Source: Spizellomyces punctatus DAOM BR117
Taxonomy: Eukaryota
NCBI GenBank assembly: GCA_000182565.2
Contig: KQ257451.1
Strand: one strand, 5' to 3'
Length of the DNA stretch: 64,000 nt
This document shows, in pieces, positions 1,931-56,435 of this stretch (position 1 is the stretch's first letter; each line of letters begins with the position of its first letter). The position numbers and the translations under genes are program-made. Below the pieces are notes generated by a model. It ran no database searches. It saw nothing but the letters and a program-made list of their open reading frames with translations, and was not told the DNA's origin.

Positions 1931-4920
1931 CTATCCTTTTGACTCTTGCTTTTTTGCGTCCTCATTTATATCAACGTCCTCCCAGTCATGTTCTTGAGAT
2001 TCACCTGTAGCAATGTCTGGGGTCGTTCGACCGGTTGATGGCGGGCTGACGCTCCAGTCCTTTCTTTTCTGGTTCAGGAAACTACTGACGTTGGCGAATA
2101 TTTGGGATGTTGTAGCTAATTGACAAAGTTAAACGAACTCAGGATGACTGTTTAATGGCCCTCCACCGTTACCTTGCAGTCGTTGCTGCTGAGCGGGATC
2201 TGTGACAGTGTCCATTGCTTTCGTGAGAGATGTTTCGACTGCCTTATTTATATTCTGCTGTATAGGCGATAGGTTTCTTCCAAGTTCAGAAAGTCGGGCA
2301 GCAAAAGACGTTTGAAGTATACCAAACGTTGATGCGCCTTGACAGGGATGAGCTGGGCTAATACTGGGAGAGGAGTTGGTACTTCTTAGGAGGCCATATA
2401 CAAAGGAAAATGAACGCAACGCACTTTGGATTGTCTGGCAGTTCTCCTCCTATTATTGCCAACCATTTCGTGTAATGAATCGTGGATTGCCATGCCTTCA
2501 CCCAGGCGGGATTGAAGTCTGCTAGGAAATCTTTTCCTAAAATGATGGACAATAAGCTCCCATTGCATTGTGGAAGGTCGATGAAGCACACCTCGTATCG
2601 CTGGGTCCACAGAGATTGCCGCAGTCTGAGCTGTCTTCACAGAAGCCAGCAAAGTAAGAAGGTACAGCTCAAACCTTGCTCGGATATCGTCGTCACTGCC
2701 CTCGAAGGACAATTGTTGATTCATGGACATGTCGTCTGAGAAAGACCATGGCATGAGCTACTCGCATGAAGGAATGGAGTGAATGAATCAAGTAAACCTT
2801 CTGGACTCCACGTTGCAACAACTGATTTCGTGATATCTGAAGATAGGTGTTTAGACATTGTTTGCATGTATGAAACAAGGTCAGGCATCAGCGCACCATC
2901 AATAAATTTCTTGTCTGGAGTAGTCAAGCTTATGAGGGGATTGAGAGCTGGATTCATGAGTTCTAAAGTACCGGTATCGACCTAAATCCCGCAGGATGTT
3001 AGCTAACGGCATGAAAGATCTCATGTACGAAACAGTGCAGGAACGTAGCCTACATTGGCAATGGCGTCGACTGCGCATCCTTTGTGGTGGAGGAAAATGG
3101 CATTACTGGTGCCCACCAAGTACGACTTTGTGTCGGAGGACATCAACACGTCCATTTGTTGCAAGGGGATATATGGTTGAAAGAAGGCCGACTGCATCAA
3201 GCATTGTTAGTAACCGGTTTCCCATGTATGACGGTCAACTGCTGCATACTTCTCCAAATATCGGTAATGGCATCCACTGCCGCAGTAGCCCTCCTTGCTG
3301 ATCTGAGGAGACCCCATACATCTTTTTCGTCGGGTCATCCTTCCCCTCCGGCCCTCGACCCAGTGACGGAGCTCCAGCATCCCGAAGCCCTCGCAGCAGT
3401 TCTACAGATTGATCAAAATTTGTATTCCAGGTGGCGACAGATATCGCATTCGGTCTTCACTGACCTGGTATCAAAGAAACCAAGCTGTATTGGTAAGCGG
3501 ACAGCCTCTCAACCTTGGAGCCAAAAAATAAAATCTGTGTCGAAGGCTCTGCGTCAGCACGATACGCCACGCTAGAACATCTATGTGCGTACCCTTTTTT
3601 CCAGAAATAATAATTTGAAGAGTTGAAGGGTTTTTTGCTTGAATTTATTCACTAACTCTCGCAAAGAGATGCCTAGAAAGTAAAACGCTTAAAACACGGC
3701 CGAACACGAAGGGAAGCATCCCCTTTATACCCATGTAAAGTGTGCTGTCGGGAATGTATCCTGAAACGGACACTGCCAAGCTGTTGTAGAGTGTCTATTT
3801 TTGAAAACGAAAAGGATGAGACAGCGCACCAGCTCGTGGTCGTTTCGCGGAAGCGGTTCAGACCTCTAATATTTCAAGCTTCGAAAAGTCCTTCTGCTCA
3901 AAGAATGCACGAGTCACTAAACCGAGCTTACTTCGGACCGATCCTAAGGTTTACATCAGCGAAAGCCAGGTGGGAGTGTTTAAAACGTGTACGGACCCAA
4001 AACGGGTTGGGTAGCGAGCACTACCACGGCTTTTTGCACTGTACTGCGAGTGACATCGACGGTTTTGTTGATGAGCTCCTGAAATGCCGGAACACAATGA
4101 GGTTCATGATGCAATTTCAACAGGAACGAATAGTACCCGCTTACACTTGCTGGCATCTGTCGGTAGCACGCCAGTCCAAACAATGTTGATTGCGGATAAC
4201 TTTTCCACTCTGGGACTGGAGGAAGATGAAAATCTAAAGGAATGGAGCGCAGTTGCGGTGGAATGAACATTGTATGTTTCATATGAAGAAAAGGGGCAAT
4301 ACTTACAAATGAACTCTTCGTCCGTTGCTGTAATAAGCCATAATCTGTAAGTAATACTGTCTGACAGATTGATCCTGAAATCCACTCGGACTCACCGTGG
4401 GCTCCATCAGGCAAGCAAAGAAAGGGCTTAGGATCAAAAACATTCTATCAATGGTCATGGAACATATGACCAAAACCCAACTCCAACATACGAGAAAGGA
4501 CCATTCCTCGGGCAAAGCTACAGAGGTATCCTCACGTAGCAGTTTATTATCCTCAGACGGGTTTGACCCTGGCAATGGTGGAAAGGGTGGAAAGGCAAAC
4601 TCCACTTGCGGACCATTTCTATCTCCGTCCTTAGGTCGGTAAGAGCTCTCGACCGACGATAAAGGCTTATCATGCCAATTTGAAACTTATACCTGTGATG
4701 AAAAGCAACGCAGAGTACTGCATTTGACAAGTAGCCTGGTTAAGGGAAGCTTCGAAGACTTCTGAACAACTACTCGGGGCACACTACCATGCAAGATTAT
4801 ACGCGACTTTTGAGGTTGGGGTTCAGTAGATGATGCGGATTCTTGGCTCAAACTTGCATCGCCGTCCTTTGGTGCTTCCTCGTCTATGGTTGCATTTTCA
4901 GATTTGGTTTCAGGCTCCAT
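1931..4920 (-). CDS. AVL9: AVL9 (DENN-like) late secretory pathway protein, multi-exon
   Basis: AFHH...GPQVEFAFPP, LPEEWSFL, LPDGAH, TLFGLACYRQ, VTRSTVQKAVVVLA, FEGSDDDIRARFELYLL, DFNPAWVKAWQST, HPCQG motifs. Confidence 0.9.
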
Positions 4921-5128
4921 AATGGGCCGTAAAATGTAAAGGATCGTCGAGCGCAAACGTTGGAGCAAACGCTGCTTCAGTCAGCGCTGCCCTCAGTTGA
5001 TCACGTGACAAGCCATTCGGTTACCGATCAACTCGAGCGTTCCAAGCGTACCAAAGGTACCAGACGTTACGCGCTTGATTTGTTGGGCAACCGCCAACGG
5101 CTGAAGGCTTTACTAGCGATCAACTCCG

Positions 5129-6392
5129 ATGGCAGACTTTATAGGTGCGTTCGTTAGACTTTGTGATATGGTGTTCAAGGTGGTAGATTACTGTATAGAT
5201 GCACGGCTGATCTTTCTGCTTTTTTTGTAGACGAACTACTTGTGTTGCGAAACAGTTTTTACCTGGGCTCGTGGCAGCAGGTCATTGACGAGGCCTCGGA
5301 TCCTTCGAAAGCCCCACGGACAGATGAAGCAAAGCTTCAACAGCGCGTGCTATTATATCGTGCATGCGTAGCTCAAGGCAAGCCGGAACGTGCCATTGCC
5401 GAGATTCGCGATAACGATGCACCCGAACTTCGAGGGGTCAAATGTCTTGCACGCTATGTTAAAGCCGCATCTTCCCAAAACACGTCCGAAAAAAGCAAGG
5501 CTGTGCAGGATATTACCACACTGGCTGCAGAGGGCACAAATGGGCTCAGCAGTACTGTACAAGTTCTGGTTGGGTCTGTCCTGTACGCTGAAGAGCGTTA
5601 TCCTGAGGCATTAAAAGCCGCGGTACAAAGTCCCCGAAACTTGGAATGGTAAGAAGCCTGTGGCTGGCGCGAATATGGCAAGATCCTCTTTCTCATCCAA
5701 TGTCCCCCAGTGTCGCACTCGCTATTCAAACATATCTTAAAATGGACCGCCCCGAACTTGCCCGCAAAGAAGTCGAGAAATTGAAGACCTGGGCCGATGA
5801 TGCCACATTGGCGCAACTAGCTGAAGCCTGGGTTAACTGTTACATCGTAAGCCGGCATCCACGTTCAAATCTTGATATGCCTTTACCTGAGATTGCCAAA
5901 CAAAACAGGGAGGAGACGAAAAGATACAAGAATCTCAATACATCTTTGAGGAACTGGCTTCATCGAAGCTTAGCACCGGTCGACTGGTTGCTGGACATGC
6001 TATCTGCAAGATGCAGGCTGGAAATTTTGCAGAAGCAGAACGACTACTACTAGAAGCTCTCAGCAGAGTAAGGCATGGTTTTCGGTCGCTGCGAACGGGG
6101 CAGCCCTGTCCGTAAACTGGTAACTGAAAACAAACTACGTTGCAGTACGCAAGCGACCCCGATGTTATAGCTAATCTGATTGTATGCGCAACTGCCACTG
6201 GGAAATCTGCGGAAATTCTCTCCCGATACACAAGGTACAAGCAGTATTGTACTGTTGTGTTTCATCGCGTCCATCTAATCGTGAACTACACTCTGCAGTC
6301 AACTTAGACAAGTCGCTCCGCAGCATCCCTTGCTGCAAGATCTCGTCCTCAAAGAATCGCTTTTTGATCGGGCTGTCCAACGATATGTATGA
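5129..6392 (+). CDS. COPE: Coatomer subunit epsilon, multi-exon
   Basis: DELLVLRNSFYLGSWQQVI, LKMDRPELARKE, DDATLAQLAEAWV, HPLLQDLVLKESLFDRAVQRYV*. Confidence 0.92.
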
Positions 6393-6671
6393 GCAAGGTG
6401 CCCGATATGATAGGGAGTACTGAACACAAGGACCGTTTATCGTCGTGCCTCTGTAATATAAATTTATCGAAATGAAGTCGAGCTATCTACGCGCGATATA
6501 TATACACACTTTATATGAGAAATTCTGATGTGCTTCACTGCCAGCTCCCCTTGGATGTCCTCTGCTATTCAATTATCTCCCTGATCTAACCGTCCCAGCT
6601 TGCGAGAGCTCCTCTCCTGTACCCACGAGAATCCATGGCAGTACTGGTGACTACGAACACTGCTCCGCCCA

Positions 6672-8514
6672 TTAAAATGCACTACCCTCATTGAACCATC
6701 TTTCGCACACCGTCCTCACGAACTGATTGTACCAAGCCAATTCTGCGCCAGAACGAGCAAACATAGCAAACGGATCGTTCCTGAGAGCGACATCCTCCTC
6801 CTCTTCGTCGCTATCCCTGGTAACTAGCCCATTTTCTCCGTATCGGTTCAACGCCTCGCGCGATTCCCGGCGTTTCATTCGGGAATCCCGCCATCTCAAG
6901 AAATTGTTCTCCACCAACTGCTCAACCAGTGCTAGTTGATGTCGTTCTAAATGATGCACTGCAAGGCACCCGTTTCGCAGTATCATTGACAAAATTATGT
7001 CCTTTAGATTTGTCTCGTCACCACTGGGTAGATTGGAGCGCAAGTACGCAAGATGCTCACTTTCGCGCTCGAGGATATATTCTGTGAAAGCAGAAAGATG
7101 AGCCATCTGTTTTGCCAGGAGAAGGCGGCTATCCCTTATCACCTTGTAACGGCTTGTCCTGGTTCGCAAATCGTCTCAGTTCTAGCATGTTTCCATTGAA
7201 ATTATAGACAAAATGGTAGGCAGTCTCGTTGTCAAACTTCTGCTCATTCTTCAAACTTGGATTCAAAGTGTTCATTAAGTAGTCCGCGACCTTCTCATCT
7301 TCCACCGATTCAAGACAACGATAATCGAGTCGCCAATCAAAGCCTCTCACTGAATGGAAAGAACATTAACACAACAGATATACACCGAAGCCTGCGGGAT
7401 CGCCACCTACATCGTCTGATGCCAGCAAGAACGGACTTTTCCGAGCTGCAAAAGACAACATCGAGAATCCCCTCTGATTCGCACTGAAGAAGCCACTGAA
7501 ATGCATCTTCTATGCCGTTGTAGCGATCATCCAGGGGAAGATAATTGTGAAAAAGAAGCTGGATGTCATCAATCACCAAAAGCGGTGGTCCCGCGGCGGA
7601 TGCCGGACGAAAAAGACGCAGCGCTTGGCTGATATCGCTAAAAAGGTGCCCTATTTCTAATCCATCGTCCGGAGATATCACATCTGAAGCGATATTCCAA
7701 CAAGTCTCAGCAAGCGAAACGAATCAAAATGTGCGAGAACTTGGAAAATTACCTCCTTTCAATCCGAAAGCACGTGCCAGAGCGAGCTGCCAAGCATCCT
7801 CCAAAGCTTCTGACGATGTTGTGACATTGTCGTTCAACTCCTCTTGTTCAGCGTCATCAAGCTCTGTTGCACTTCCACCATGTCTCTTGTTGAGGACTTC
7901 GGCAAGCTTCATGTAGATGGCGGGCCTTGATGCGCACTCGGAAGTAGTCCAAGTTGCTAAGGCAGTGCCTTTCCCAAGACCTGGTGCCCCTTCAACTAGA
8001 AAACATTAAGCCATATAGCACAGTCAGTAGGGTCCGTCGGTGATCGTCCATGCGCCAGCGGCCCGGTGGGGTATGCGACATGCACGCCGAGAATAACAAA
8101 AGCAGTATTACCAAGCAAAGGAGTTCCTGCCTTTTTCGCCTCTTTGACCTCAGAGACAAGGTGCTCGGTTTGTGCGGGAAAGGGTGGAAGGGAATATTCT
8201 GACGTCTCCGCCGATGCCTCATTTTCGGCAGCTGATTCCAAGATCTTCACCAAGTGGTCAATAACGTCCTTCACACTTGGCTTATCTAGTCCTTGCAGAT
8301 CCACTTTGACAGATGGCTTTCGGCGGCCTCCCTTTCCTCTCCCTTTGCCGCTGAACAGTGACGAATTCTTACGATTTTCGTCCCCGACGGCAACCTCATC
8401 ACCTTCCCCAAGTGACCACAGTGCCCAGACAAGAATGACGGCAGCAGCACCTCCTATGAGGTAAGGTACAAGCTCGGAATCTAATCGAGGTCTTGGTGCT
8501 TTGAAGCGGGCCAT
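6672..8514 (-). CDS. Putative membrane-anchored P-loop NTPase (AAA/STAND-like), multi-exon
   Basis: N-terminal hydrophobic segment YLIGGAAAVILVWALWSL; Walker A-like EGAPGLGKG (~7968-7994); Walker B PPLLVIDDIQ; FNGNMLEL motif. Confidence 0.6.
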
Positions 8515-8747
8515 GGGGATAGAAATTCCGTCGAGGTCCTGCAAGAAATCGCTCAAAGCAATGCTCATCGAAAGTGCAATTTACCGCATTTGGACAAATG
8601 ATATGCACTGGCAGTGCGAAACTTGACCTTCCAGTACGAAACTCCCCAACCATCATGGCGTTCGCATTTTTTAACAGCGGTGGTGAAGATTTCATGGGAA
8701 CTACCCCCAGTTGTCTCTCCTATTCAGAGGTTGGTTGATTTACCTCG

Positions 8748-11120
8748 ATGTTAACAGTAAAGGATATCTTCGACGCATTGCCTTCTAGCCTCCTGAGCGA
8801 GGAAACCGAAGGTTACATCCGAGCGGTTCTTGGGGAGTCTGACGATACCCCTTTGGAGCTGGATGAGGTGAAGGAGGTTTTGGCGGACTTCCTTCAAGAC
8901 GCTGGTTGGAGTCAAACGCAAGTGGATGGATTTATCGCTCAGTTTCGCCAAGCTACCCCCCAGGCTGAGCCCAACGCAGAGAGTGGGGAACACGAGCTTA
9001 AAAAGTTGGAAGAGTCAGTGAAACTCTCCGTGAACACCGAAGAATCTGCACCGAAATTAGTAGATTTGAGCCCCTCGAAAGCATCGTCACCGCCCCAATC
9101 GCCTCGACGGCCTCCTCCCAAAACTAAACGCGTAGCAAAAACTGTTGAAGTGGTGGCCACATCTCAGGTGTCGAGATTTCATGCGGAAACTTTGGACACA
9201 CTCTCAAACGATGTTGATTTAAAAGGCGTCAATATCACTGTGGGGGATCATGCACTTCTTGTGGATGCGAATCTACGGTTGTTTAGAGGTGTGCACTATG
9301 GGTTAATCGGTCGTAATGGAGTCGGCAAGTCCACTCTTCTCAAGTGTATTGGGCACAAGCAGCTTATAGGCTTTCCCACCAACATCAAAGTCTTATATGT
9401 TGAGCAGCTGGAAGGGGTGGAAATGTCAAGACCTGTAGTTCAGGTGGTTATGGACGCTGACAAAGAGGCATCACGTCTGCGAAGAGAGACACTCTTGATT
9501 CAGTCTGTACTGGAAGCTCCCAATCCATGTGAGATTGCAAAAGCAATGCGTACCATTCGGCTTGCTCGGCTCGTCGAAGAGAAAGATGCAGCGAGTGAAT
9601 TGGCCGTTAAACGGAGCGGAGCTCGAGGAGCTGAAGCCAGAAAGCAGCTGAAACAGTTGGAGAGCATGGTGGCAGAGATGGAAGAAGCGCATAAGGCTCC
9701 CATTTCGCAAGAGGAGATGGATAATGCCGCTTCAGAAGCGCAAGGAGTTCTAGCCGACCTGTACGCCATGATGGATCTACATGATAACGATGCAATGGAA
9801 GGCAAAGTGCGGAGCATATTGAAGGGTCTTGGCTTTCCGGTTGAATGGCATGATCGGCCGCTCGGAGAGTTGTCGGGTGGATGGAGGATCCGAGTCGCGT
9901 TGGCTGCGGCTTTGGCTCTGCGACCAGACGTACTGCTCCTTGATGAGCCCACAAATCATCTCGACCTTCCTGCCATTCTCTGGTTGCAATCTTATTTGGC
10001 GAGCTTAACAGATACCACCATTGTGACAGTCTCGCACGATCGAGCCTTTTTAAATGCGGTCGCACAGGAGATCATAGTTTTTAAAGATCAGTCACTAACG
10101 TACCACACCGGGAATTTCGACGAATACTTGCAGCATACTGAAGAGGATCGCAAGTACAAGGAGAAGATGGCAGATGCTATAGAAAAAAAGAGGACAACAG
10201 CAGCAAAGAGCGTGCAGACCGCAATGGTTCGTGCCCGTCAAAGCGGAGACGACAAAAAGATGGCGGCTATGGCATCAAAACAAAGGAAACTGGAACGATT
10301 GGGTATGGAAGTGAACGAAAAAGGCCATCGCTTCAAACTGAATCGCGATCGCGCTGGGTACCACAGCACTATGCGTGAAGAAGTAAAGGTGGAACGGGCT
10401 GAGCAAGCTTCAGCGTGGTCGATCGCGAATCCCACACCTTTGCGGCAAGGGCATGCCATTCTTGAGGTTGAAGGCGTATCCGTGGGATTCGATGCACGTC
10501 AACCAATTCTTTCGGACGTCACTATGAATGTGACCCAATCGTCTCGAATCGGGATCGTTGGAGCCAATGGAAGCGGGAAGACTACTCTTGTGAAAGTGCT
10601 TGTTGATGAGTTGTCCCCATTCAAAGGCCGTGTGAATCGACATCCTACAGCCAAAATAGGATATTTCACTCAGCATCATGTCGACGATCTTCATAAATAT
10701 CCAGCCGACACATCCGCGATCTCGCTGCTACTCCAAAATCAACCTGGGATGCGGGAACAGGACGCACGCGCACATCTTGGAAAGTATGGCATCAAAGACG
10801 CGGTCGCGCTCCACCCTCTAAGACATTTGAGTGGAGGGCAAATGGTCCGAGTTGCATTTGCCTTGAGCACTTTTGGCTCGTCGCCACACCTGTTTGTTCT
10901 AGACGAGCCGACCAACCATTTAGACTATTTAACTACACAAGCGATGATAGAAGCTTTGAAGAACTTTGAGGGAGCAGTTGTTATTGTATCGCACGATCAA
11001 TATTTCGTTTCTGAAGTTGCGAACGAGGTGTATTTGGTTATGGACGGACATGTAAACCGGTTGGAGGGTGGTATGCAGGAGTATGTAGCGCTATGTACCA
11101 GTCGAAAACGATTGAAATAA
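8748..11120 (+). CDS. ABC-F family ATPase (GCN20/ARB1-like), single exon, 790 aa
   Basis: Two NBDs (GRNGVGKS, LSGGW, LLLDEPTNHLD, VSHDR; GANGSGKT, LSGGQ, LDEPTNHLD, VSHDQ) and no transmembrane domain. Confidence 0.95.
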   Translation: MLTVKDIFDALPSSLLSEETEGYIRAVLGESDDTPLELDEVKEVLADFLQDAGWSQTQVDGFIAQFRQATPQAEPNAESGEHELKKLEESVKLSVNTEESAPKLVDLSPSKASSPPQSPRRPPPKTKRVAKTVEVVATSQVSRFHAETLDTLSNDVDLKGVNITVGDHALLVDANLRLFRGVHYGLIGRNGVGKSTLLKCIGHKQLIGFPTNIKVLYVEQLEGVEMSRPVVQVVMDADKEASRLRRETLLIQSVLEAPNPCEIAKAMRTIRLARLVEEKDAASELAVKRSGARGAEARKQLKQLESMVAEMEEAHKAPISQEEMDNAASEAQGVLADLYAMMDLHDNDAMEGKVRSILKGLGFPVEWHDRPLGELSGGWRIRVALAAALALRPDVLLLDEPTNHLDLPAILWLQSYLASLTDTTIVTVSHDRAFLNAVAQEIIVFKDQSLTYHTGNFDEYLQHTEEDRKYKEKMADAIEKKRTTAAKSVQTAMVRARQSGDDKKMAAMASKQRKLERLGMEVNEKGHRFKLNRDRAGYHSTMREEVKVERAEQASAWSIANPTPLRQGHAILEVEGVSVGFDARQPILSDVTMNVTQSSRIGIVGANGSGKTTLVKVLVDELSPFKGRVNRHPTAKIGYFTQHHVDDLHKYPADTSAISLLLQNQPGMREQDARAHLGKYGIKDAVALHPLRHLSGGQMVRVAFALSTFGSSPHLFVLDEPTNHLDYLTTQAMIEALKNFEGAVVIVSHDQYFVSEVANEVYLVMDGHVNRLEGGMQEYVALCTSRKRLK

Positions 11121-11337
11121 TCGTGATCCTTGGATAAGGCATAACCAAAAGCACGCCCCATCTTGCCGTCCAAATCCCAACTTGCGCGCAAGTTCAGAAG
11201 CAATATGTCCTAAATGGGATGAGAGATGATGAGTCATTCTGCATCTCACCGGTGGGCCGATGCAGTCCGTCCGTGTCTTCCTCCTGCCGTCAGTCTCTTC
11301 TGTCCTTTCGTCCCAATCCAAGAGGAGCTTACACAAC

Positions 11338-12959: not shown

Positions 12960-14783
12960 TCATGGTGAGTCAAGCATGTATGCAATCGCCGCTTCGACGT
13001 TGCCACCCTATCCAAAGATAAAAGTCAGGCTCAACTGAACTTATAAAATGACCCACTCTTGAAGACTCACGGCGGCAAGCAGGGCTCGAATACATCTATC
13101 TTTTTCCTGAAGCGATAAGACCACTGGAGCGTGAGTAGTTTTGCAATGGTAAGCAGGTATCTAAGATCTCACCTCAAAGCCCATATCGCGTAATGTATTC
13201 TTCACAAAAATGGTACAATGAGATCGCAGAAGAGATGCTATATGATAAACACATGCTTCATACCAATTGCTCGGCAAACCGCTCTTCGTGTGATTCAGTC
13301 AAGGACTGTGGCTCGACTTGTGGTTGAGCTGGCGCTGCCGTTGACGCTGTCAGCGGTTCAAATGGCTGAAATGCGCCCTGAAGTTGTTGGATTTGTTGCA
13401 TCATGCTCCCAAAGTCGAAATGTGGTGCTGCAAGAGATGGGGCGGTAGTTGAGGACGGTGTATTCGGTGCGGCCGTCGACGGGGGCTATTGCAGCGAGGG
13501 TTAGTAATCAGACCGACCAAACTAAAGATGATTTAATAGATTAACCTGCAAGAAGTTAAGGGAGTTGAAAAGAGCAGGATTTCCAAATGGTGCCGTGAAT
13601 GGTGACGAGGGCAAGGATGCAGAGTTGGAAGTAGGGGATGTGGTTGGCGGTGGCGCCCAGGGATTTGGAAGAGCCTGGTTGTTGATTCCCTCGCTTGATG
13701 ATCGTTGTTGCGCACCCAGTAACTCTGCAAACCGACGATTTGCCTCGTCTATAGAATCCCTTCATTAGACGTTCAAACACGTCTATTTGACTGGTTGATT
13801 ATTGGACGCACCTGTGCTCGTGTCCTCTTCCCGCATTTGACTTAAAGGTGCTTGTATATCGTGATATATGGAACTTAGAGCATTGAATCCACCAGGGATG
13901 TTTTCGATGTTCAGCAGCTGCCTGTCTGTCCTCACGTCATGTCACTTTTGGTTCAAATCCAGATTCCAGAAGTAAGGCATCCGAGGTAACATACCAACAT
14001 TTCTCATCATTTCCTGGCTCTAAATTTTTCATACGATATTAGATGGTTAAAGCAATCACGACATGCAAAGCCCACAGGACGGCATACAAACCAATGCAGG
14101 GTTCCTCATAGTGTCGAGCATCTCTCTTAGGAACTACACCATCGATGACAAAAGTCAGCTACATTCGCCAGATCCAATTAATTTTCGCTTTGACGATTAC
14201 CCGAGGATCATTCAGCGTTTGGCGAAGAGAGGGATTCGACTCAGCTAAGCGTGCAATCCTTGGGTCGTTCTCCAACATGGTACGCATAAATTCTGGATTC
14301 TCCAACATACTTCGGACAAAAGGATTTTCTAACAAGGCGCTCATATCTATTTGCAGACGGTTAATAGATTTCGGTGTTAAGGGCCAGGTTACATCTATCG
14401 CTGCAGCCACCTGGAAGTCCAAAAGCATTACGAGCCGCGCCTCCTGCTCCTGGAACGTTATGACCGGCTGCCGCCGCAGTACTTGCTTCTTCCGCAGCAC
14501 GATTTCTGGCTAATTTTGTAGCATGAACTGTGATTCCATCTTTCAATCCGAGCGACGATACTGATTCTTCATCGTCCTTGAGCACGCGGCCAGCATAAAC
14601 TAGGCGGATCTCGTCCAATGGTACATTGACGCGGGATGCCAGTTGAGCTTTCAGTTCTGCAAGTGTCTCTTTCTCAGGATCTGTAACTCTAAGTGTGATG
14701 TCGGTTCCAACATCGCCTAGCCCGGGTGCTAGACGGAACCGGATGTTGATGGGCGATGAACTGGCATCAGTGGAGCTAGACAT
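12960..14783 (-). CDS. DSK2: Ubiquilin/Dsk2 (UBL-STI1-UBA), multi-exon
   Basis: UBL IRLVYAGRVLKDDE; STI1 repeats LLENPFVRSMLENPEFMR; NIENIPGGFNAL; UBA LRDMGF...ALLAA/GGNVEAAIAYML. Confidence 0.9.
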
Positions 14784-14789
14784 AATCTC

Positions 14790-14880
14790 TGTGTAGGCTG
14801 TTTCTAGTGTAGAGGTGACAGAAACTGGCACTAGCTACTACACCAGGGAATAAACCGGCGACAACCGGTTCGGAAAAGCC
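14790..14880 (-). ncRNA. Putative Fanzor omegaRNA, copy 1 (scaffold ~14805-14880 plus ~15-nt flank-derived guide GAAACAGCCUACACA)
   Basis: Minus strand GGCTTTTCCGAACCGGTTGTCGCCGGTTTATTCCCTGGTGTAGTAGCTAGTGCCAGTTTCTGTCACCTCTACACTA; stems AACCGG/CCGGTT and TGGTGTAG/CTACACTA; 74/76 identical to copy 2; resembles the SpuFz1 omegaRNA as recalled. Ends are inferred. Confidence 0.8.
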
Positions 14881-15518
14881 AACTAAGCTACTACTAGGCA
14901 ATTATACACGCAATACGTAACGGTTGTTTCTAACCGGATAATTGCCCACCACCACACGCGGTCCCTACTAGGCCTTGATCTGGAACTCTTGATGGCATTG
15001 AAGGCATCCAGGAGTGAATCGACTGGGCAGCATCACAAGCTGGGGGATTTTCAGTGACAAGGCTTGGAGACTAAAAACTGCATGTCAGTAACAGAATAAC
15101 ATGAAAAGAGATGATGCCATTGGTACATACCAACCAAGCTCAACTAATGTGGCAGTATAATAGCAGCTTTGTTGGTTCCGAGTGATTGTTGCTGGTTCCA
15201 GTTGGTTGTAGTCATCGGCAGGGCAAGGTGCAATGTGGGTCGTGATGAGTGTTGCGCAGATGGTTTGAGAGTTGAGGAACTGGTGAGGAAGGGAAGAGAC
15301 AGGAAAGGCCCCCCTTTTATAGACCTTGAGTGTGGCAAATGGGGTCCAGCTGAAAAAAAAAAAAAAAAAAAAACATTACATTAGCATGCCACACCGCAGT
15401 TTGGAGAACATTAGCAGGACGTCTTTCAGCGATGGGGGTTCTGATTATGCAATATAATTAACCGGATTGATCCGGATGATAATGGGTACTAGTGCCATTT
15501 ACTGTCAGCTCCACACTA
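14805..15518 (-). mobile_element. Non-autonomous TIR element, Fanzor 'ghost' copy 1
   Basis: 30-bp TIRs 14805-14834 and 15489-15518 (26/30 match, both ending in TA); homologous to 55745-56435; minus-strand 5' flank reads CATA (15517-15520); no long ORF. Confidence 0.88.
15314..15321 (-). promoter_or_regulatory. TATA box (TATAAAAG) inside ghost element 1, followed by a CT-rich tract
   Basis: AAGGTCTATAAAAGGGGGGCCTT is conserved in both copies; the same TATAAAAG core lies upstream of GAPDH. Confidence 0.6.
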
Positions 15519-15691
15519 TGTACTGCAAACAGCGTTTCAAATTACGCGTCATTAGTCATTTGAATTTCTGGAACGTTTGGTTCTTGGTAACAATTGCAAG
15601 GGAAGATCCAAAGAGCTTTTGTTCGTTTTCAAGACTTGCCACGGATCTTGCTCCTGGGGTCGGAAATCTCAACGACGGTTGCAAAAGAGAG

Positions 15692-17438
15692 ATGGCTCGT
15701 CCTCGCAAAGTTTTTGCAGAGCAACCACGCCCACCAACCAACATTGAAAGCAAGTTAGAGAACCTTGCTCGACTGGCCAAAACTGGACGAAGATCTCGTG
15801 CTCAAGCTCCGGATGAGGCACCTATCTCCCGCAATGGCCGACCAAAGAGATTTTCCGTGGACAGAGAAGACAGCGACGAAGCTGCAGGTGATAGTTTTCA
15901 CAATGGAAATGAACTACCAGCAGCGACACTTGGGAAGCGATACAGACAGGATGACGCTGACTTGCAATCAATGGAACCAGCCACTCGCCGTCGCGTTGGT
16001 GTGAGGGCAGAAGAGAACTATTATGCATCTGCGAAATGTAAGTTGACATCCGCGTCAGTTGGTGTCAGACACGACATCTGTTGAGGGAAAGGGGCGCATG
16101 TTATTCAACTATGCTGTTATAGGGTCACAATTTCCGCAGCATGATGCTATGATGGCACAAAGATCTTCTCTAAGCCATACCATTACACAGGATTACAACC
16201 CAAAAGACTACAATATACCGCCATACTTTTTCCTCTCAAAGGATGGAATGATAGCTACTTTTACCTGGCATCCCCCGAAACGTGTGCGTTTTCGTTCTCA
16301 ATATTCTTGGAAAGAACAAGGAAGGATACTTACGGTATAATTGGATAATATTCGGAACCCACACGCATAGTCATCTAAGTGGTGGATCCGCTTCCACGTA
16401 CTTACAGATCTGCAGCGATATCCAGTCAGAAGAAAACACATACCAAGAATATGACTCCGTCAAAGCTCCCCGCCTTCTCTCATTTCTGAGGTCTCATTTG
16501 CAAAAATGCATACGAAGAACAAACGGACAGCTGGCCTATCGCACTGCATACCAACTGATCAAGCCAGATGCTGCTGAATTGATTCGACAGCTACCAATGA
16601 TCGTGTTGGAGGACGCGATCCCAAATCCCCAGTATCCTGGTATGTAAAGGCTAAATTTGACGTGGCTTCATACTCAATAAGCTTCTGCAGGTCTAATATG
16701 GCTAGCATGTGCGACGGAGAAAGGGTTTCGGCCACCGATATCGATCATAGAGTGGCTGCTGGGATATGTTAGGGCTGTTGCTGACAGCCCATTTCGAGAA
16801 ACCTTTGAGGCGTCTGCCTCGTCCGACCCGCTGCAACTGGTGTCCAGATCGGTTGCTGAGCTGCCGACATCGAAGCGCGACCTGCTCTATGCCCTTCAAC
16901 TGACAAAAAGCCTACAGACATCGGCAGGTGAGCTCCAAATGCGGTGTTCAGACTGGTAGCGCTTTTGTTCATAGTGCTGTTCACTTTCTCAGGGAATAGA
17001 TTTTTGATTGACAAAACCACGCGAGCTTGGTTTGAGCGCATGCGGTCAGACAGTAATGACAACCATTATTCTAAAACTCTGTATCAAGTCCATCATGTGC
17101 CAATCGATGGGGTGCCGAATCTTCAGCCAGATGAGCTGGAACTCTCAGCTGTGGATCCATGCTGCTCCGATATATTGGACATTTTGCGTCAAGAACTGGA
17201 TGAAGAAGATCAGCAGCGATGGCCGGACGATGTAGTTCTTAAACATATGCTCAACGAGAAGAGTTGTGAGCTCCGTACAAAGATGTTAGTACCAGCAGTC
17301 TTTGGAGGGAGCGAATCAAAGAGTGCGGAAAAGCCACCTGGTGTAAATAGGATGGAGGTGGATTTGTTATGGAGAAAGTACAAAGAGAAGATTAGCCAGG
17401 CACAAAGGAGAATATTAAGGGGCGCCATCAGTAAGTGA
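15692..17438 (+). CDS. Hypothetical protein with an MgsA/RarA C-terminal-like helical motif, multi-exon
   Basis: Spliceable ORFs 15692-16036, ~16123-16337, ~16410-16640, ~16691-16927, ~16994-17438; LRSHLQKCIRR...IRQLPMIVLEDA. Confidence 0.6.
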
Positions 17439-24769: not shown

Positions 24770-28146
<3,377 letters not shown>

Positions 28147-28439
28147 ATTTCTCCTAATTCGAGATATTGGGAGGCTTGGCTTAACTAATAGGATACTTCG
28201 GACCAGAATGTGGAGGAGAAAACAACTGAAATGTGCCTGAAGTAGCGTGCTACAATTATGAGCCTTCCGATGAAAACGGCACCATGATGTGAAAATTTGG
28301 TATGGCACTTTTGGATGTTAGACTACCTGGGTCCGAGTAATTGTTATTTTCTGGTCGTTGTGGCCATTTAGATCGTTATTTGTTGCCTTGTGCTTTGGCG
28401 GACTGCCATTCATATATTGTGATTGAGAGGGATGCCGGC

Positions 28440-31031
28440 CTACAATATTTTGGTTCCAAGGCTGTACATAAGCTCCACACCCTTCAATTCCCTTACTCGA
28501 TCTAGTGCGTCGGCTGGAAGAAAGAAAGTCATTTCTCTAACTTATAATGTACAAGTCCAGCGCGTGAATATCGATCGCACTTACAATTTTGGCATAGTCG
28601 AGCACAGGCTATTGCAAGGTTTCGTTGTACTGTAGGCATCTTGGCGCTACGGAGGAGGTACACGAGGGGTTCGGTTGCGTTAAGTTTATGCAACTTCTTG
28701 GCGTGGTTAGCTGGGGGATTCCAAAGTTATTACGATAAATCAACAGGAAAGGCACATTGGAGGACATCGGTTGTCCGTACTTTTGGTCGCACACTCGGCG
28801 ATACACAGCGCAATATTGCCTGCGGTTTTTTCATCTTCTTTAAGTTCCTGTCCTTCTGACAATTCAAGGAGAACATCCACAAGTGCTTCAAAGCCATTTT
28901 GCTTCTCCCACTCTGCCACTCTCCGCTCTCCACCTTTCAGCCAGGCTGCTAGAACTTGGGCTGCTGCTGTCCTTGTACCCTCTCCAGCAGGGTCACGAAT
29001 AAGGCTTATCATGGGAACAATATCCCACCACCCGTCCAGCGCCACTGTAACTTCTTCCAAGTGGAAGCGGAGAAGCTTTGCGAGACATGAGATGGAAGCT
29101 CGTGGGTGTGTTGTTAGAAGGTGTACGAGGGTCGTAATTATGCTGTGAGTGCTGAGGAGCGTTGGGTGTGCTGGTGTGTTGTGCAAAAGGTTGTGATATG
29201 TGGCAAGGAGGTGAAGGACGAGAGTGGAAGCCGTAGATGTCGGGTTGGTAGGTGAAAGCCGGTGTATCGTTTCCCATATGGAGTCGATGAGAGGTTCGTG
29301 GTACTGCTTGAGGGCCGCTGTAAATTTGGGATTCGAGGTGCCTGCGATTGCATCAATACAGCGACAAGCATGAACTGTCAGCGCCTCTGTTGTTTCGTCA
29401 TTAGCCAGTTTGTACTCTTTGACATGAATGGGTAAGGTCGCTAAAAGCTTGTCGGGCGATACCCGCCATTTGACCATAACGATGTCAGGGCCTTTCGGAG
29501 TATATCGCATTATTCTCCCAAGCAGTTTAAGCATATGCCCGACAATAGTAGAGCTAGTGGCGACACCATCCGTTTCTCCACCTAAAAATGCCAGCACGAA
29601 TCTTCCAAATGTTTCTCCAACCACGTTGGAGTGGCAGAGGGCTTCCGCGAAGGTGTCCTCAGCTACACCAGAAGAAAGTATTTCGGCAGCGGCGCTGATG
29701 GTTTTGAGAGGAGGTTTTTGGGTGGCAAGCATGGTCGTTATCATGTGGTTTAGGTATTGACAAAGTTCTCGTCGGTTGGCATCGACGCCAGAGGTGGCTC
29801 GCGCTATTACGGGAAGAATAAAGTTGACTGATGACGAAGTGAGAATGTCCGGGTTGAGGAGGCGATGGAAACCACCACATAGTCGAAAGGCGTCAGAAAC
29901 GATAGTATCGGTGTCCAATAGCCTTACGAGCATGTCCGAGGCAGATACTATACGGTCATTGTACTTGTTCGATGGTGGTAATTCAATAGCATTTTTTATC
30001 TCCCGTACGAAACCGTCCAGTAATCCTTCCATGATCATGTTGGAACCATCATGTTCTAAATCTTCTTTCAGCGCTTCCTCAGCTTTCATATCTAAATGCT
30101 CCCTCTCTATACCATCTAGCAGTCTGTCAACTTCGGCTAGGGTAACCCCAGGGTTACATACAGTCTTTTTGCATCGATTGATTTTCTTCTTAGCTTCCTC
30201 ATAGTCTGTGACCATCTGCTTGACTTTAAGAACATCTTTGATGGCTTCCTCATATTGTCGAAGACCACGGTGACCTTCTGCCCTTCTCCACAGTGCTTTT
30301 GCACAACTCGCATCAACTTTGAGGGCTTCGCTACAATCTTCGACAGCTTGCTTGAACTCCTTTAATCGGAGATATGCAAGTGCACGGTTGGTGAACAGAG
30401 TGGCGTCAACGATAGTCTTGGACGGAATCAGCCGGTCCAGTGTTAGCAGCAGTGGATCGCTTTCTTGAGGCGGGTTCAGATATATGTTGATGGCTGAAGT
30501 GTATTCTTCAATCGCTTCATGGTATTTACGATCCTTGAAATATTTATTACCAGTTTCACGATGCTGATTCGCTGATTGACGTATTTTTTCTGCAGCTGTC
30601 ACTCGCTTCGTTGGCTCATGCTTCTGTTTTGTGGATCCTTTCTTTTCCGCTGCTAGCGCAATGTTTCTCTGTTCCTCTTCTGCATCTGGGTTAATAGCGT
30701 CCCACTTTGAGTAATCGAGCTTGGGGGACCCTAACGGTGCTCTGGTGTCTCGTTTTGGCAGTCGGATAGGAGCTCGATTACTGGCATCTGAACGTGACGT
30801 CGCCGCATCACTTTTATTATCCTGTGTCAACTCTCTCTGTGCCCAAGCTTTCTCTTCATCCGTGACCCTCCCCGATAATATCTCGTTCATTTTTGTAGCT
30901 AGATGGACAGATGATAGCTTTTAGCAAAAACAGGTCAGCCAGAGATGTTTACCCAGAGACATACTGTAGCTATCTACAAATTCGTCAAATTCAGCCAATT
31001 CAGCCTTGAGATCTGCTAGAATGTCAACCAT
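28440..31031 (-). CDS. TTC12: TTC12-like TPR + armadillo protein (axonemal dynein assembly)
   Basis: ETGNKYFKDRKYHEAIEEYTSAI, FTNRALAYLRL, KALWRRA TPRs; ARM region GNIALCIAEC; C-terminus RVRELKGVELMYSL; N-terminal DEFVD motif. Confidence 0.72.
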
Positions 31032-40232: not shown

Positions 40233-41662
40233 TCACTCCTCCTTCCCCTTCTCCTTCTCTACAAACCCAAGGGAAATCCTCGCGATCTCTCCTTCTTCGT
40301 CTGTTGCAACAACAAAGACCTTGACTGGACTTTCCTCTTTCGAAATCTCCACCACTTTATTATCGTTCAATGAGCACTTTTCGTTCTTGCTTTCGTCTAG
40401 ATGGACGCTGATGCATGTGAGATTTTGGCAGACTTTTGCCCGCACCAGGGATGAGTTTTCCCCTATTCCGCCTGTGAAGATGATCCCGTGGGCCGGGTTT
40501 AAGGCAATGTGATATGCGCCGATATATTTCTGGATTCGGTACTGAAACGAGTCAAAATTGGTAAGTTTATGCATTCTTGTGAGGTGATAAGAAACCGGAG
40601 GGCACAACCCACACAAAACATATCGAAAGCCAGCTCGGCTCTCCGTTTCTTCTCCCCCTCCCCGTTCCGCATCAAGTCGATAATCTTTCTGATGTCATTT
40701 TCGCCACAAACGCCTCTCAACCCACTCTCATGGTTGAGCACATCTTCCACTTTGGAGATCTTGGGACCGGCTGGAGCGGATTTTATCGCAGGTACTTTGT
40801 CCAGCGAGAACCCCGGCTGGGAGATGTGAAAAGGAGCGGAGGGGTCAATGTCCCCACTCCGTGTACCCATCATGAGTCCCTCCAGAGGCGTGTATCCCAT
40901 AGATGTATCAACGGAAACTCCATTCTTGATGGCGCATGCGCTACACCCGTTGCCCAGGTGGAGAGAAATAAGGTTTATACCCGGATGACGACCCAATACC
41001 AGATGAGAAACGTAATTATGTGACGTTCCATGGAAGCCATACTTTCTCAACCCGCTCTCGTTGCATGCATCAAAAGGAAGCGGGTACCGCCATACCTTTT
41101 CTTCAAGGGTCGAGTGGAACGACGTATCAAACACCCCAACCTGCTTTGAGTCAGGAAAGAGTTTAAGCGTTGTTTTGATGAGTACGACGCTGGGGTGGTT
41201 GTGGAGAGGTGCAAGAGCAGAGAGAGAGTCAAGCGTTGAGATCGAGGAGGCTGTGATGAGAGTCGGTTGAGTGAAATCCTGGCCCCCATGAACGATGCGG
41301 TGTCCAACCGCTAGAACATCAGTCAAGAGTTTTTCATCATTGTCTTGTAACACTTGTATCATTTTTCTGAATACGGATTCATGATCCGTTCCGTCAGTCG
41401 CTTCGTCAGTGAGCGTCCTGGATGTGGTCTTTGCATCGTTGTCTTTGAGAATCTGGATTTGGATGGGTGAATTTGGGGCCCCGAGGGACGAGGCCGCGCC
41501 TTTTACGAGGATGGTCAAGTTTGACGCGGATGTGAGGTTGTAGAGACGGAATTTGATGGTGGAGCTGGACACAGGCTTAATATGTTTTGGAACTACCAGA
41601 ATATGGTGGCAGAAGAGGACAGTGTCTCACCTTCCAGCGTTCACAACGAGAATGCGAGGCAT
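40233..41662 (-). CDS. ackA: Acetate kinase, 3 exons
   Basis: MPRILVVNAGS/STIKF, GHRIVHGG, APLHN, VFDTSFH, YGFHGTSH, HLGNGCS, MGTRSGD, IFTGGIGENS, TDEEGEIA. Confidence 0.95.
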
Positions 41663-44194: not shown

Positions 44195-47100
44195 CTATAG
44201 TACCAAAAGTCGGACCTTGGCAGTCTCATCCATCCCTACATATCCATCACTAACAATAAGCAAGGTCAATTCGACCTCCCCAGGTTCATCAGGTGTGATA
44301 AATCTCAGTCCAGTAGACATCTTATCCGATCGATCGCCCGTCGCAGCAACACGTTTAATGGCAACTACTTCGTCTTCAACAGCATCGCCAAGAACCACCC
44401 ACCAGCCTTCATATTGTGGTTTGGGAAACTTTGGAGCATATACTCGGTGTTGGTTGTTCATTCCGCGAGACGGCCGTGATCGTGTCAGTTCGACTCGAAG
44501 TTCATATTGTTGTCCACGTTGCACACCCCATAATCCCGGCAACTTCTCAACCGCATTTTCCACTCTAGATTTGACGCTCAATAATGGCAAGTTTCGGGTG
44601 ATGCGTTTAATCTCTCCGATGTGGGCGGGGGCAAGGCCCACCCCGGCAAATGCTTCCTCCATATCCTGATCACTCAACCGTGCAACGTGCTTTAAATGAG
44701 TCACCACGTCCCCCCTCACTTTGAGCATTGATGCCATTTCATTCGTTACTCTCGGCAAAATTACCAACTCTGATCGTGTGGGCCACCATGCCTGCTTGAT
44801 ACACTGCATCAAGTGCATGACACCCAAACAGGTAGACAGGTACCCATCCTCGGCAGCGACATCCACCATGGCCTGCATGATACGGATTGATTGATCCAAT
44901 ACCGACGTCGTATCAGTAGCGAAATCAGCGCACGGCAATGTTCCCAAGCGGGTAAGATGGGCTTGGAGAAGCAAAAAAGCTTTCGCATGCGGGTCATCAT
45001 AATCGTAGATCTTGCCTTCGTTCAAGGGTCCAATACCAAAGGAACTGCCTTGTTCGTTCAAGTTGACCGGAACAGGTAACAGTCTTTCGAGATCCTGATT
45101 CATCTTGTCCTCATTGTGCCGTACAGGGAGCTCATCATACTCTGCTACGTCACACAAGATCCTCAGCATCTTCGGAAAATCTCCCTCAGCGGCTCTAGCG
45201 GCGGACGGTGCACGGTAATGGGGTCCAAGGCGTTGCGTCAGTGTTCGGATGGTGGTATGGTGGAGATAATAGTACGACGCAATCTTTCCATACACAGTAG
45301 GGTGCACATAAAAGTCACCGTCAATCTCGATACACGCCGAGTCGACAAGAGCCTGCAGGGAATTTTCGATCAACGTGGACATGTAAATATTGATACCCTC
45401 TGGAGAAGCTTCTTGGACTCCATAGAACGTTGGGTTCTGTCAAAAAACTCAGTTAGCTCCACAACCATAGGCTTCTCCAAACGTAGCTACTCACCATCTG
45501 CAATCTCCGATAAAGGTACGTCCATGTCAAATAATCCATCGCATCCTGTTTGCTTGTCACCGTCCCCCCGACAATCTCAGCACACATATGATCATGTAGA
45601 CATGTATGTAAACTGCTCTCAACAGGGAAGGGTTCGTGCAAAAACTTTTTGTAAAAGTTTTTCTTGATGTCATGTACAAAAATCCGTGCAACACCAGAAT
45701 CATCAAACTGGGGACGTCCAGCTCGCCCCATCATTTGCAGGACATCAGTAATCTGGAAATCGACGTATCCCTTCACCTTGGCATCGTAAAACTCTGTTCC
45801 CTTGATGACGACGAGATGCGCGGGATAATTAACTCCCCACGCGAGCGTACTTGTAGCGATGAGAATCTGGATCTTGCCATTCACAAAGAGCTCTTCAGAG
45901 ATTTTTCGGTCACTTTCTATCAAACCGGCGTGATGCAGACCGATCCCAAATCCAAGGGCAAGCTTGAGGGACTGGTCTTTGACCTGCGAGACCAAGATTT
46001 CCAAGTCTTCTTCGGGCATATGCAGGAAGCGTTTGGGGTTTTCGTCCAAACCGCATAGCGCAATCAAGTCTTGGGCAGTAAGCCGAGTTTGTCGCCGCGA
46101 AGATACGAAAACTATTACCGGTTTCCTAGGGGAATGCGTCAGTATGGCCGTATAGGTTGGTTTGTTCATCGACATCATTCGCGGACAGTCTGAAAATGGT
46201 CGAACAGAAATGGTCAGTCTCTGGACCACGTCGTCACTCAATACCAGTCGCCAACTCACAATGCTTGCCGGCGAATCCATCAATGTAAATCTCCAGAGGG
46301 ACGGGCCGTACTGAATGCCTAAAGTTGAACAATCCAACATGCGTAATTCCAAGCCAATCCGCTAAATCATTTGCGTTCGCAAGCGCCGTGCTCAGTCCTA
46401 CAATCCGAATCTTTTTTCCTGTTTGTGCAGAGATATAATTCATTCTGGAGACAATAACTTCCAAAATCGGGCCTCGATCTCCTCCTAGAAGGTGAATCTC
46501 GTCGATGATCACCAGTGAGACGTTTGTGACATATTTACGCGTTTGCCAGCTTCGACTGATTCCATCCCATTTTTCGGGAGTTGTAATGATGATATCTGCC
46601 TTTTGGATCGTACGCAGATCGGGAGTTACGTCCCCAGTCAACTCCACGAGCTCTCGGTTCATAGGGAATGTCAGTCGAGATCGCCAATCTTGGACTCGCT
46701 CGCGAACCAATGCTTTCAATGGAGCGATATAGACCACCTTCGACTTGGGGTGATCCCTGAAGGCCGCCCACATCGCCAATTCGGCCGCAACAGTTTTTCC
46801 GGAGCCCGTTGGTGCGCCCACGAGAACGTTATGCTCACTTCGGTACAACGTATGGAAGATCTGGGTCTGCACAGGATTGAAGTATTCAAACCTCTGCCTG
46901 CAGATATCCTCCAGAATTGGGTTGTCTAGTGCTGATACAGGGAGTGGCTGCAAATCTAACAAATCCGTGTGAGGTGCTCTATTCAGGGTGGGAAGAATTA
47001 GATGCTTAAACGACACGGGGATGATAATGTCGGACCCAATCCATTTATCTGAAACCGCACGGATGAAAATCTGGGGTGGGAGCTCGTCAACGGTTGAAGA

Positions 47101-55729: not shown

Positions 55730-55820
55730 GATGTTACATGTATTTAGTGTAGAGGTGACAGAAACTGGCACTAGCTACTACACCAGGGAATAAACCAGCG
55801 ACAACTGGTTCGGAAAAGCC
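55730..55820 (-). ncRNA. Putative Fanzor omegaRNA, copy 2 (scaffold ~55745-55820 plus guide AAUACAUGUAACAUC)
   Basis: Same scaffold as copy 1 apart from the compensatory pair AACCAG/CTGGTT. Ends are inferred. Confidence 0.8.
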
Positions 55821-56435
55821 GAGTAATTCCCTCCTTACAACCAACCAACTACCACTAGGCCCAATTACACATGCAATACATTACGGTTGTTTCTAACCGG
55901 GTAACTAAGCCCACCACACGAGAGAAATCCTACTAAGCCCTTGATTCCGAAATTCTTTAGTCAGAGGATGTTCAGATACTAATTAAACCAGAATTAGACT
56001 CGGAATACACATGGGAAAATACAAAGATAATGCATACCTGCAATCATTGCAATATAGTAGTAGCAGCGTTTGCAAGGGGTTATGTTGTTTTTGTCGGGAG
56101 GGCAAGGTCCTCAACACCAGAGCGGCATTCTCATGATGGACTTGAGAGTGTTGCTTGAACGTTGCGCAGATGCTTTGAGTCGAGGATGGGTAAAGAGGAA
56201 AGAGGGAAGAGACAGTGAAGGCCCCCCTTTTATAGACCTTCCGCATGCACCTCACCGCAGTTTAAAAAAAGAAAAAAATACGTTAGCATGCCACACTGCA
56301 GTTTGGAGTTTGGAGAACATTAGCATGCCACACCAATCTGAGCGATAGATGGGGGTTCTGATTATGCGATATGATTAACTGGATTGATCCGGATAATAAT
56401 GGGTCCTAGTGCCATTTTCAATCACCTACACACTA
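55745..56435 (-). mobile_element. Non-autonomous TIR element, Fanzor 'ghost' copy 2
   Basis: 30-bp TIRs 55745-55774 and 56406-56435 (25/30, ending in TA); termini, TATA region and A-tract colinear with copy 1; minus-strand 5' flank reads TATA. Confidence 0.88.
56227..56234 (-). promoter_or_regulatory. TATA box inside ghost element 2
   Basis: AAGGTCTATAAAAGGGGGGCCTT, identical to copy 1. Confidence 0.6.

Follow-up and report, generated by a model that had tools for sequence, protein, structure and literature searches.

Anatomy of two inverted-repeat elements

A window of 64,000 nucleotides (nt) from contig KQ257451.1 of Spizellomyces punctatus DAOM BR117 was analyzed, centered on two related elements that are bounded by inverted repeats (IRs), contain no open reading frame (ORF) for a nuclease and end in a sequence resembling the omegaRNA of the Fanzor1 nuclease SpuFz1. 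Both are compared here with the published "ghost Spu-1" elements. Copy 1 spans 14805–15518 (714 bp) and copy 2 spans 55745–56435 (691 bp), the starts of the two lying 40,940 bp apart. Both are described on the minus strand, the orientation of the RNA, in which the left end of copy 1 is 15518 and its right end is 14805. The left-end (5') IR of copy 1 occupies 15489–15518 and the right-end (3') IR occupies 14805–14834; each is 30 nt long, and the latter is identical to the reverse complement of the former at 26 of 30 positions. Neither 30-mer found a chance match in 100 shuffles when up to 3 mismatches were allowed. A looser scan of the whole window, with up to 9 mismatches, returned only four termini, belonging to the two copies, and the same scan of 5 shuffled windows returned none. 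Both copies start with TAGTG and finish with CACTA, and the terminal TA therefore belongs to the IR. The right-end boundary is fixed by contigs of other copies from a DNA sequencing run (X13), which part from copy 1 precisely at 14804/14805.

On the minus strand, the scanned part of the transcribed region (15290–14790 in copy 1 and 56215–55730 in copy 2) contains no ATG-started frame of more than 25 codons, nor any ATG-started frame common to both copies. Stop-to-stop frames within the element do not exceed 96 codons, which is far below the 633–638 amino acids of the Fanzor ORF, and a domain scan of the 10 stop-to-stop frames of at least 250 amino acids in the window detected no TnpB, Fanzor or transposase domain. 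A first-pass annotation, made from the sequence alone, had described the segment as a 714-bp non-coding element with 30-bp terminal inverted repeats (TIRs), TA at both ends and a second copy about 41 kb away, and each of these features was recovered. The two copies are 87–93% identical at their two ends, and their interiors are 75–79% identical or cannot be aligned; the distance from IR to IR is 654 nt in copy 1 and 631 nt in copy 2. A plus-strand reading frame, whose product ends in ...RLWRYVNT, terminates directly before copy 2.

According to the text of Saito et al. 2023 (PMC10432273), the genome of S. punctatus DAOM BR117 contains 42 loci with full-length or partial Fanzor (Fz) genes and 134 ghost Spu-1 loci, in which the IRs are present and the Fz ORF is absent. 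In ghost loci, as described there, two 30-nt IRs enclose a conserved region of about 550 nt; the 5' IR is preceded by a conserved CA, and 75 nt at the 3' IR resemble the omegaRNA of Fz loci. The same text states that the IRs of ghost and Fz loci differ at seven positions and that Spu-1 has no known transposase; its Fig. 3e and Extended Data Fig. 3c depict ghost scaffolds. Bao and Jurka 2013 (PMC3627910) had earlier described SPu-1 as an element about 2.1 kb long that has TIRs and, putatively, duplications of TA. Set against these descriptions, the two copies resemble published ghost Spu-1 loci in their host genome, which is the same, in their 30-nt IRs, in the lack of an ORF and in a predicted guide taken from the flank. 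They differ in the 654 and 631 nt between their IRs as opposed to a conserved region of "around 550 nt", which is no difference in kind. With canonical Spu-1/SPu-1 they share TIRs, TA ends, a CATA target-adjacent motif (TAM; copy 1, see below), and an omegaRNA scaffold that overlaps the right-end IR and is predicted to take in 14–15 nt of flank, but, unlike that element of about 2.1 kb with its Fanzor1 ORF of 633–638 amino acids, they contain no such frame.

The omegaRNA scaffold and the flanks

The right end of copy 1 carries a 75-nt omegaRNA scaffold (14805–14879, minus strand) composed of stem-loop 1 (8 bp, loop UGUC), a 6-nt linker (AUUCCC) and stem 2, whose 3' half is the right-end IR. 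In copy 2 the scaffold runs from 55819 to 55745. The minus-strand 75-mer 14879–14805 has a predicted folding energy of −23.4 kcal/mol (z = −3.84), a stability reached by none of 200 shuffles, and the predicted fold consists of two stems, the 6-nt linker and a 3-nt bulge in the long stem 2, in agreement with the structured minus-strand 3' end noticed in the first-pass annotation. When 15 nt of flank were included, the resulting 90-mers gave z = −3.47 for copy 1 and z = −2.70 for copy 2, the latter with the same fold. This architecture corresponds to the published one, which is described in PMC10432273 as two stems plus a linker of 6 nt (A29–C34); in ghost omegaRNAs, stem 2 has a 3-nt bulge where the canonical molecule has an 8-nt hairpin loop. 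The 75-nt scaffold at the 3' IR with its predicted 3-nt bulge is thus a further point of likeness to the ghosts described in that text. Over the 75 nt the two copies differ at 2 positions only, which jointly turn a G-C pair of stem-loop 1 into the A-U pair of copy 2. Three variant positions were listed within the same stem-loop, and none of them breaks a pair: the changes at 14857 and 14866 compensate each other, and that at 14867 turns G-C into G-U.

The scaffold was compared with the 18 canonical omegaRNA nucleotides that are named in the text of PMC10432273 (U5, C6, C7, U16, G17, U18, C19, G20, G22, A29, C32, C34, U35, G37, C40, G70, A72 and A75), with position 1 placed at 14878 in copy 1 and 55818 in copy 2 on the minus strand, and with one 1-nt shift permitted after position 20. 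With that shift, 15 of the 18 nucleotides were matched in both copies, while the best of 20,000 shuffles, given the same choice of nine registers, reached 13 of 18. Two of the three mismatches are C40 and G70, which are U and A in the ghost scaffold and would still pair with each other. The need for a 1-nt shift after position 20 and the U-A in place of C40-G70 are the differences from the canonical omegaRNA as that text gives it. The first-pass annotation had taken the scaffold for a variant unlike the published one; it does differ from the canonical sequence, but ghost variants have themselves been published (PMC10432273, PMC13434818). Four ghost-locus scaffolds were reported to edit human cells with SpuFz1 as well as the best canonical designs (PMC10432273), and a 2026 paper describes 126 unique ghost scaffolds (gst1-126) of 74–76 nt from the same genome, of which representatives were tested and which are already in use for editor engineering (PMC13434818).

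Word depth in the DNA run X13 was 259–379 over the scaffold and IR and 30–99 upstream of them, compared with 2.8 on the flank, which is single-copy. Although word depth is not a copy number, these values agree with a scaffold shared by more than 100 copies. Exact pattern scans of metagenome contigs with the 5' half of the scaffold and with the IR consensus found 0 loci each.

Read on the minus strand, copy 1 is preceded at its left end by ...GTACA, after which the IR starts with TAGTG, so that the flanking CA and the first TA of the IR form CATA (15517–15520), as had been pointed out in the first-pass annotation. CATA is the TAM of SpuFz1, any mutation of which abolishes cleavage according to PMC10432273. 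The CA upstream of the 5' IR that the same source describes for ghost Spu-1 is present in copy 1 and absent from copy 2. Native omegaRNAs extend 14–15 nt past the conserved 75 nt (PMC10432273), and from this extension a 15-nt guide, GAAACAGCCTACACA, is predicted at 14790–14804 for copy 1 and another at 55744–55730 for copy 2. The predicted guide of copy 1 sits in the leader of a gene for a protein with a ubiquitin-like domain, whose ATG is at 14784. In the window, no other match to the copy 1 guide was found (14 nt, up to 2 mismatches); the copy 2 guide had one match with 2 mismatches, at 39236, which is not beside CATA and is probably due to chance.

Should the terminal TA be a target duplication, the site of copy 1 without its element would read ...GTACA-TA-GAAACAGCC..., in which CATA stands before the element's own guide, the geometry required for TnpB-like homing or retention. 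On the same premise the empty site of copy 2 would read TATA + AATACATGTAACATC, and under the strict TAM requirement published in PMC10432273 copy 2 could not target it. In bacterial IS200/IS605 elements with TnpB and omegaRNA, the guide RNA lies at the right end of the transposon, the guide is drawn from the flank, and the left-end junction holds the TAM; because of this arrangement, the unoccupied site is the target. The copies studied here are similar to those elements and to their TnpB-less derivatives in the right-end guide RNA, the guide in the flank and the TAM at the left end. They differ from IS200/IS605 elements, which move as single-stranded DNA without TIRs or duplications, in having TIRs, and also in their putative TATA promoter of eukaryotic type and their spliceosomal intron, described next.

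Intron, RNA reads and a putative promoter

A TATA box, TATAAAAG, lies at 15314–15321 on the minus strand of copy 1, inside a block conserved in both copies, and its counterpart in copy 2 is at 56234–56227. A run of 21 T (A21 on the plus strand) is located upstream of it at 15353–15373. On the minus strand, both copies also have, upstream of the TATA box, two occurrences of a motif similar to TGCTAA(T/C)GT, about 30 nt apart (15376–15420 and 56285–56340). Beside these motifs lie T-runs, a single one of 21 T in copy 1 and two of 7 T each in copy 2; judged by their sequence, motifs and T-runs may be promoter elements.

RNA raw reads labeled as from the same organism (X19) were placed on 14650–15750 at 95% likeness. 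About 6% of the run was read, and 95,540 reads were placed, nearly all of them in minus sense. Following the transcript from its start, minus-sense depth was 0 at 15279–15750, and total depth did not exceed 1.0 in the bins of 15353–15750. Coverage in minus sense starts 36–79 nt downstream of the TATA box, with depths of 5.5 at 15242–15278, 135 at 15205–15241, 337 at 15168–15204 and 901 at 15131–15167. After a gap at 15094–15130 (1.1), it continued at about 470–550 over 15020–15093 and rose to 9,267 at 14983–15019, 25,347 at 14946–14982 and 31,440 at 14909–14945 (against 108 in plus sense). It then fell to 24,969 at 14872–14908, 11,131 at 14835–14871 and 4,115 at 14798–14834, and was 3.2 at 14761–14797 and 0 at 14650–14760. 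Plus-sense reads also occurred upstream of the TATA box, at 15279–15352, at a depth of 6–13, and 19 of 19 had the letter of a sister copy at 15303; these reads may reflect weak divergent transcription from a ghost promoter.

At the level of the family, the transcript is spliced. A 60-nt spliceosomal intron at 15071–15130 (minus strand) has the signals GTATGT, TACTGAC and TAG, and the joint 15070→15131 was present in 904 + 5 X19 reads with 20 start places. The intron borders are CT..AC on the plus strand and hence GT..AG on the minus strand, an orientation from which it follows that the RNA strand is the minus strand, in omegaRNA sense. Despite the diverged surroundings, copy 2 has kept the TATA box TATAAAAG at the equivalent place, a GTATG some 10 nt away from where the alignment would place it, and CTGAC followed by AG. 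Transcription by RNA polymerase III was considered and is thought less likely: the transcript contains T-runs of 4–5, about 440 nt separate the TATA box from the scaffold, and the intron is spliceosomal.

The depth of X19 over 14872–15019 is 2–7 times that over the scaffold, and the DNA word depth of X13 runs in the opposite direction. This excess could be due to mapping bias, to a library bias related to structure or to a stable by-product of omegaRNA processing. The depth profile largely mirrors the places where copy 1 resembles more expressed sister copies. Among assembled sequences, X8 contigs span only 14827–15003; no X20 contig was placed on 14650–15750, which is no proof of absence. The analysis of this interval drew on X8, X13, X19 and X20; X1–X7 and X9–X12 contained just 4–9% of the sampled words and are evidence neither way.

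Interpretation, alternatives and neighboring genes

Copy 1 is, with a probability of about 0.9, a member of the published ghost Spu-1 family, that is, a relative of the Fanzor1-encoding Spu-1 transposon which is non-autonomous and encodes no protein. This assignment draws on the anatomy of the copies, the host genome, the likeness of the scaffold and, at the level of the family, transcription in omegaRNA sense and splicing, all of which were observed in this analysis. Elements of this kind were published in 2023 (PMC10432273), and the first reading of 14805–15518 is correct and amounts to the recognition of a published family. What that reading stated of SpuFz1, namely its residence in TIR elements with TA ends, the CATA TAM, an omegaRNA overlapping the right end and the existence of ORF-less ghosts, agrees with the texts of PMC10432273 and PMC3627910. 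Its inference of a stand-alone omegaRNA gene served in trans is supported as a kind, being published for the 134 ghost Spu-1 loci (PMC10432273), and the features of the present copies fit it.

For promoter class, 3' processing, RNA loading of these copies and homing, we infer the following course of events. The internal TATA-box promoter (15321–15314) would start a minus-strand non-coding transcript near 15280–15240, from which the 60-nt intron (15130–15071) would be removed by splicing. The transcript would continue through the scaffold (14879–14805), including the right-end IR, and a few nt into the flank, to yield a mature omegaRNA made up of the scaffold plus about 15 nt of flank (14804–14790). 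SpuFz1 produced from Fz-encoding loci elsewhere in the genome would bind this omegaRNA in trans, and the complex would cut CATA followed by the guide; for copy 1, this is exactly what its own insertion site would read in the absence of the element (CA + TA + GAAACAGCC...). Once the cut had been repaired from an occupied copy, the element would be back in place, a course that would amount to TnpB-like homing or retention.

Several observations weigh against this assignment and the activity it implies. Minus-sense X19 reads carry a letter other than that of copy 1 in 295 of 301 cases at 15185, 296 of 300 at 15189 and 874 of 967 at 15004, and 91,616 of the 95,540 placed reads fit only partly; most of the RNA reads stem from sister copies, and copy 1 itself may supply only a few. 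Past the right end of copy 1 the depth is only 3.2 (14761–14797), and it is 0 below 14760. No sharp RNA starts or ends were listed for X19 over 14650–15750, so that no discrete RNA of about 90 nt was seen, and depth over the scaffold (4,115–11,131) is below that just upstream of it (about 25,000–31,000). The flanking genes have zero X19 depth. The left-end flank of copy 2 supplies TA before the TA of its IR, giving TATA without the CA. The likeness to the canonical omegaRNA was measured on the 18 nucleotides named in the text. Finally, an Rfam search of the whole window at gathering thresholds gave 0 matches, a null that says little because Rfam may have no Fanzor omegaRNA family.

Part of this evidence would also be expected from an inert relic. 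On this reading both copies would be genomic fossils of the Spu-1 family, dead miniature TIR elements with an omegaRNA-like end that goes unused, and the reads would come only from other, active members. The letters of copy 1 are found in just 4–6 of about 300 reads at 15185/15189, coverage past its right end is as low as 3.2, and the two interiors have strongly diverged. Copy 2, moreover, is without the C of the CATA TAM, mutation of which abolishes cleavage (PMC10432273). What makes a relic improbable is the pattern of what has been kept: the 75-nt scaffold is intact in both copies, with a compensatory pair as its sole two differences; the TATA box, 5' splice site, branch point and AG are preserved in both in spite of the divergent interiors; and CATA is retained in copy 1.

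Slightly less probable still is that the main product of the locus is the spliced non-coding RNA and not a guide, its abundant segment just ahead of the scaffold (14880–15019) acting as, for example, a regulator or a decoy that titrates SpuFz1. RNA depth at 14872–14982 (about 25,000–31,000) against that on the scaffold (4,115–11,131), with DNA word depth reversed (40–99 against 259–379), would suit such a product, as would the confinement of the X8 contigs to 14827–15003. The depth profile is confounded, however, because reads of many diverged copies were placed at 95% likeness, and structured RNAs are under-read in many library types; the segment, furthermore, has no known function and is less conserved between the copies than the scaffold.

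An ordinary miniature element of the Tc1/mariner type, with no RNA-guided role and a hairpin arising merely from its TIR and subterminal transposase-binding sites, would account for the TIRs, the TA at both ends, the missing ORF, the putative TA duplications described for SPu-1 (PMC3627910) and the lack of a transposase or Fanzor among the window's 10 stop-to-stop frames of at least 250 amino acids, but it is very improbable in view of the 15 of 18 omegaRNA nucleotides, not reached in 20,000 shuffles, the compensatory change in stem-loop 1, which lies outside the TIR, the strongly strand-specific and spliced transcription in omegaRNA sense, and the published activity of ghost scaffolds with SpuFz1 (PMC10432273, PMC13434818).

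As a member of the ghost Spu-1 family, copy 1 illustrates that a guide-RNA gene can exist without its nuclease, a point already made in 2023. The modest addition made here is evidence that ghosts carry a TATA promoter and an intron of their own and are heavily transcribed in the guide sense, in an RNA run labeled as from the same organism. There is an even chance that ghost Spu-1 elements are self-contained RNA polymerase II units, in which the conserved TATAAAAG box and intron give rise to an abundant spliced non-coding RNA ending in the omegaRNA; omegaRNA production would then be tied to RNA polymerase II initiation and splicing instead of resulting from transcription that reads through from a Fanzor gene, and the ghosts would be hyperparasites of SpuFz1. 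If true across the family, this would explain how a protein-less element secures the expression of its guide in a eukaryote, and mutants in the promoter or splice sites would offer a handle on whether maintenance of ghosts depends on Fanzor. Neither "intron" nor "TATA" is used anywhere in the main text of Saito et al. 2023 (PMC10432273), and an internal TATA box, an intron or native transcription of the ghost interior was not found in print, although supplements of the published work may bear on the point; two exact stretches of the element were not found in a full-text search of the literature.

Three other genes or gene-like regions of the window were noted. In the region 14361–14834 (minus strand), the gene for the protein with a ubiquitin-like domain (Pfam ubiquitin, E = 3e-12) has its ATG at 14784, 21 nt downstream of the right end of copy 1, and the zero X19 depth at 14650–14760 means either that this gene is silent there or that the library is without mRNAs. 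The region 44195–48398 (minus strand) contains adjacent frames with DEAD, Helicase_C, wHTH and Sec63 domains, each set occurring twice, and a weak direct repeat (45781/48512) inside; these frames fit a Brr2-type helicase with two cassettes and look ordinary. An acetate kinase gene at 40499–41626 (minus strand; Pfam E = 4.5e-83) is annotated in the public genome. Its ORF is 100% identical to the acetate kinase of S. punctatus DAOM BR117, which places the window in the genome of that strain; the next best matches, at 57–58%, are from other chytrids, and beyond a few chytrids its nearest relatives are bacterial, with 38–50% identity.

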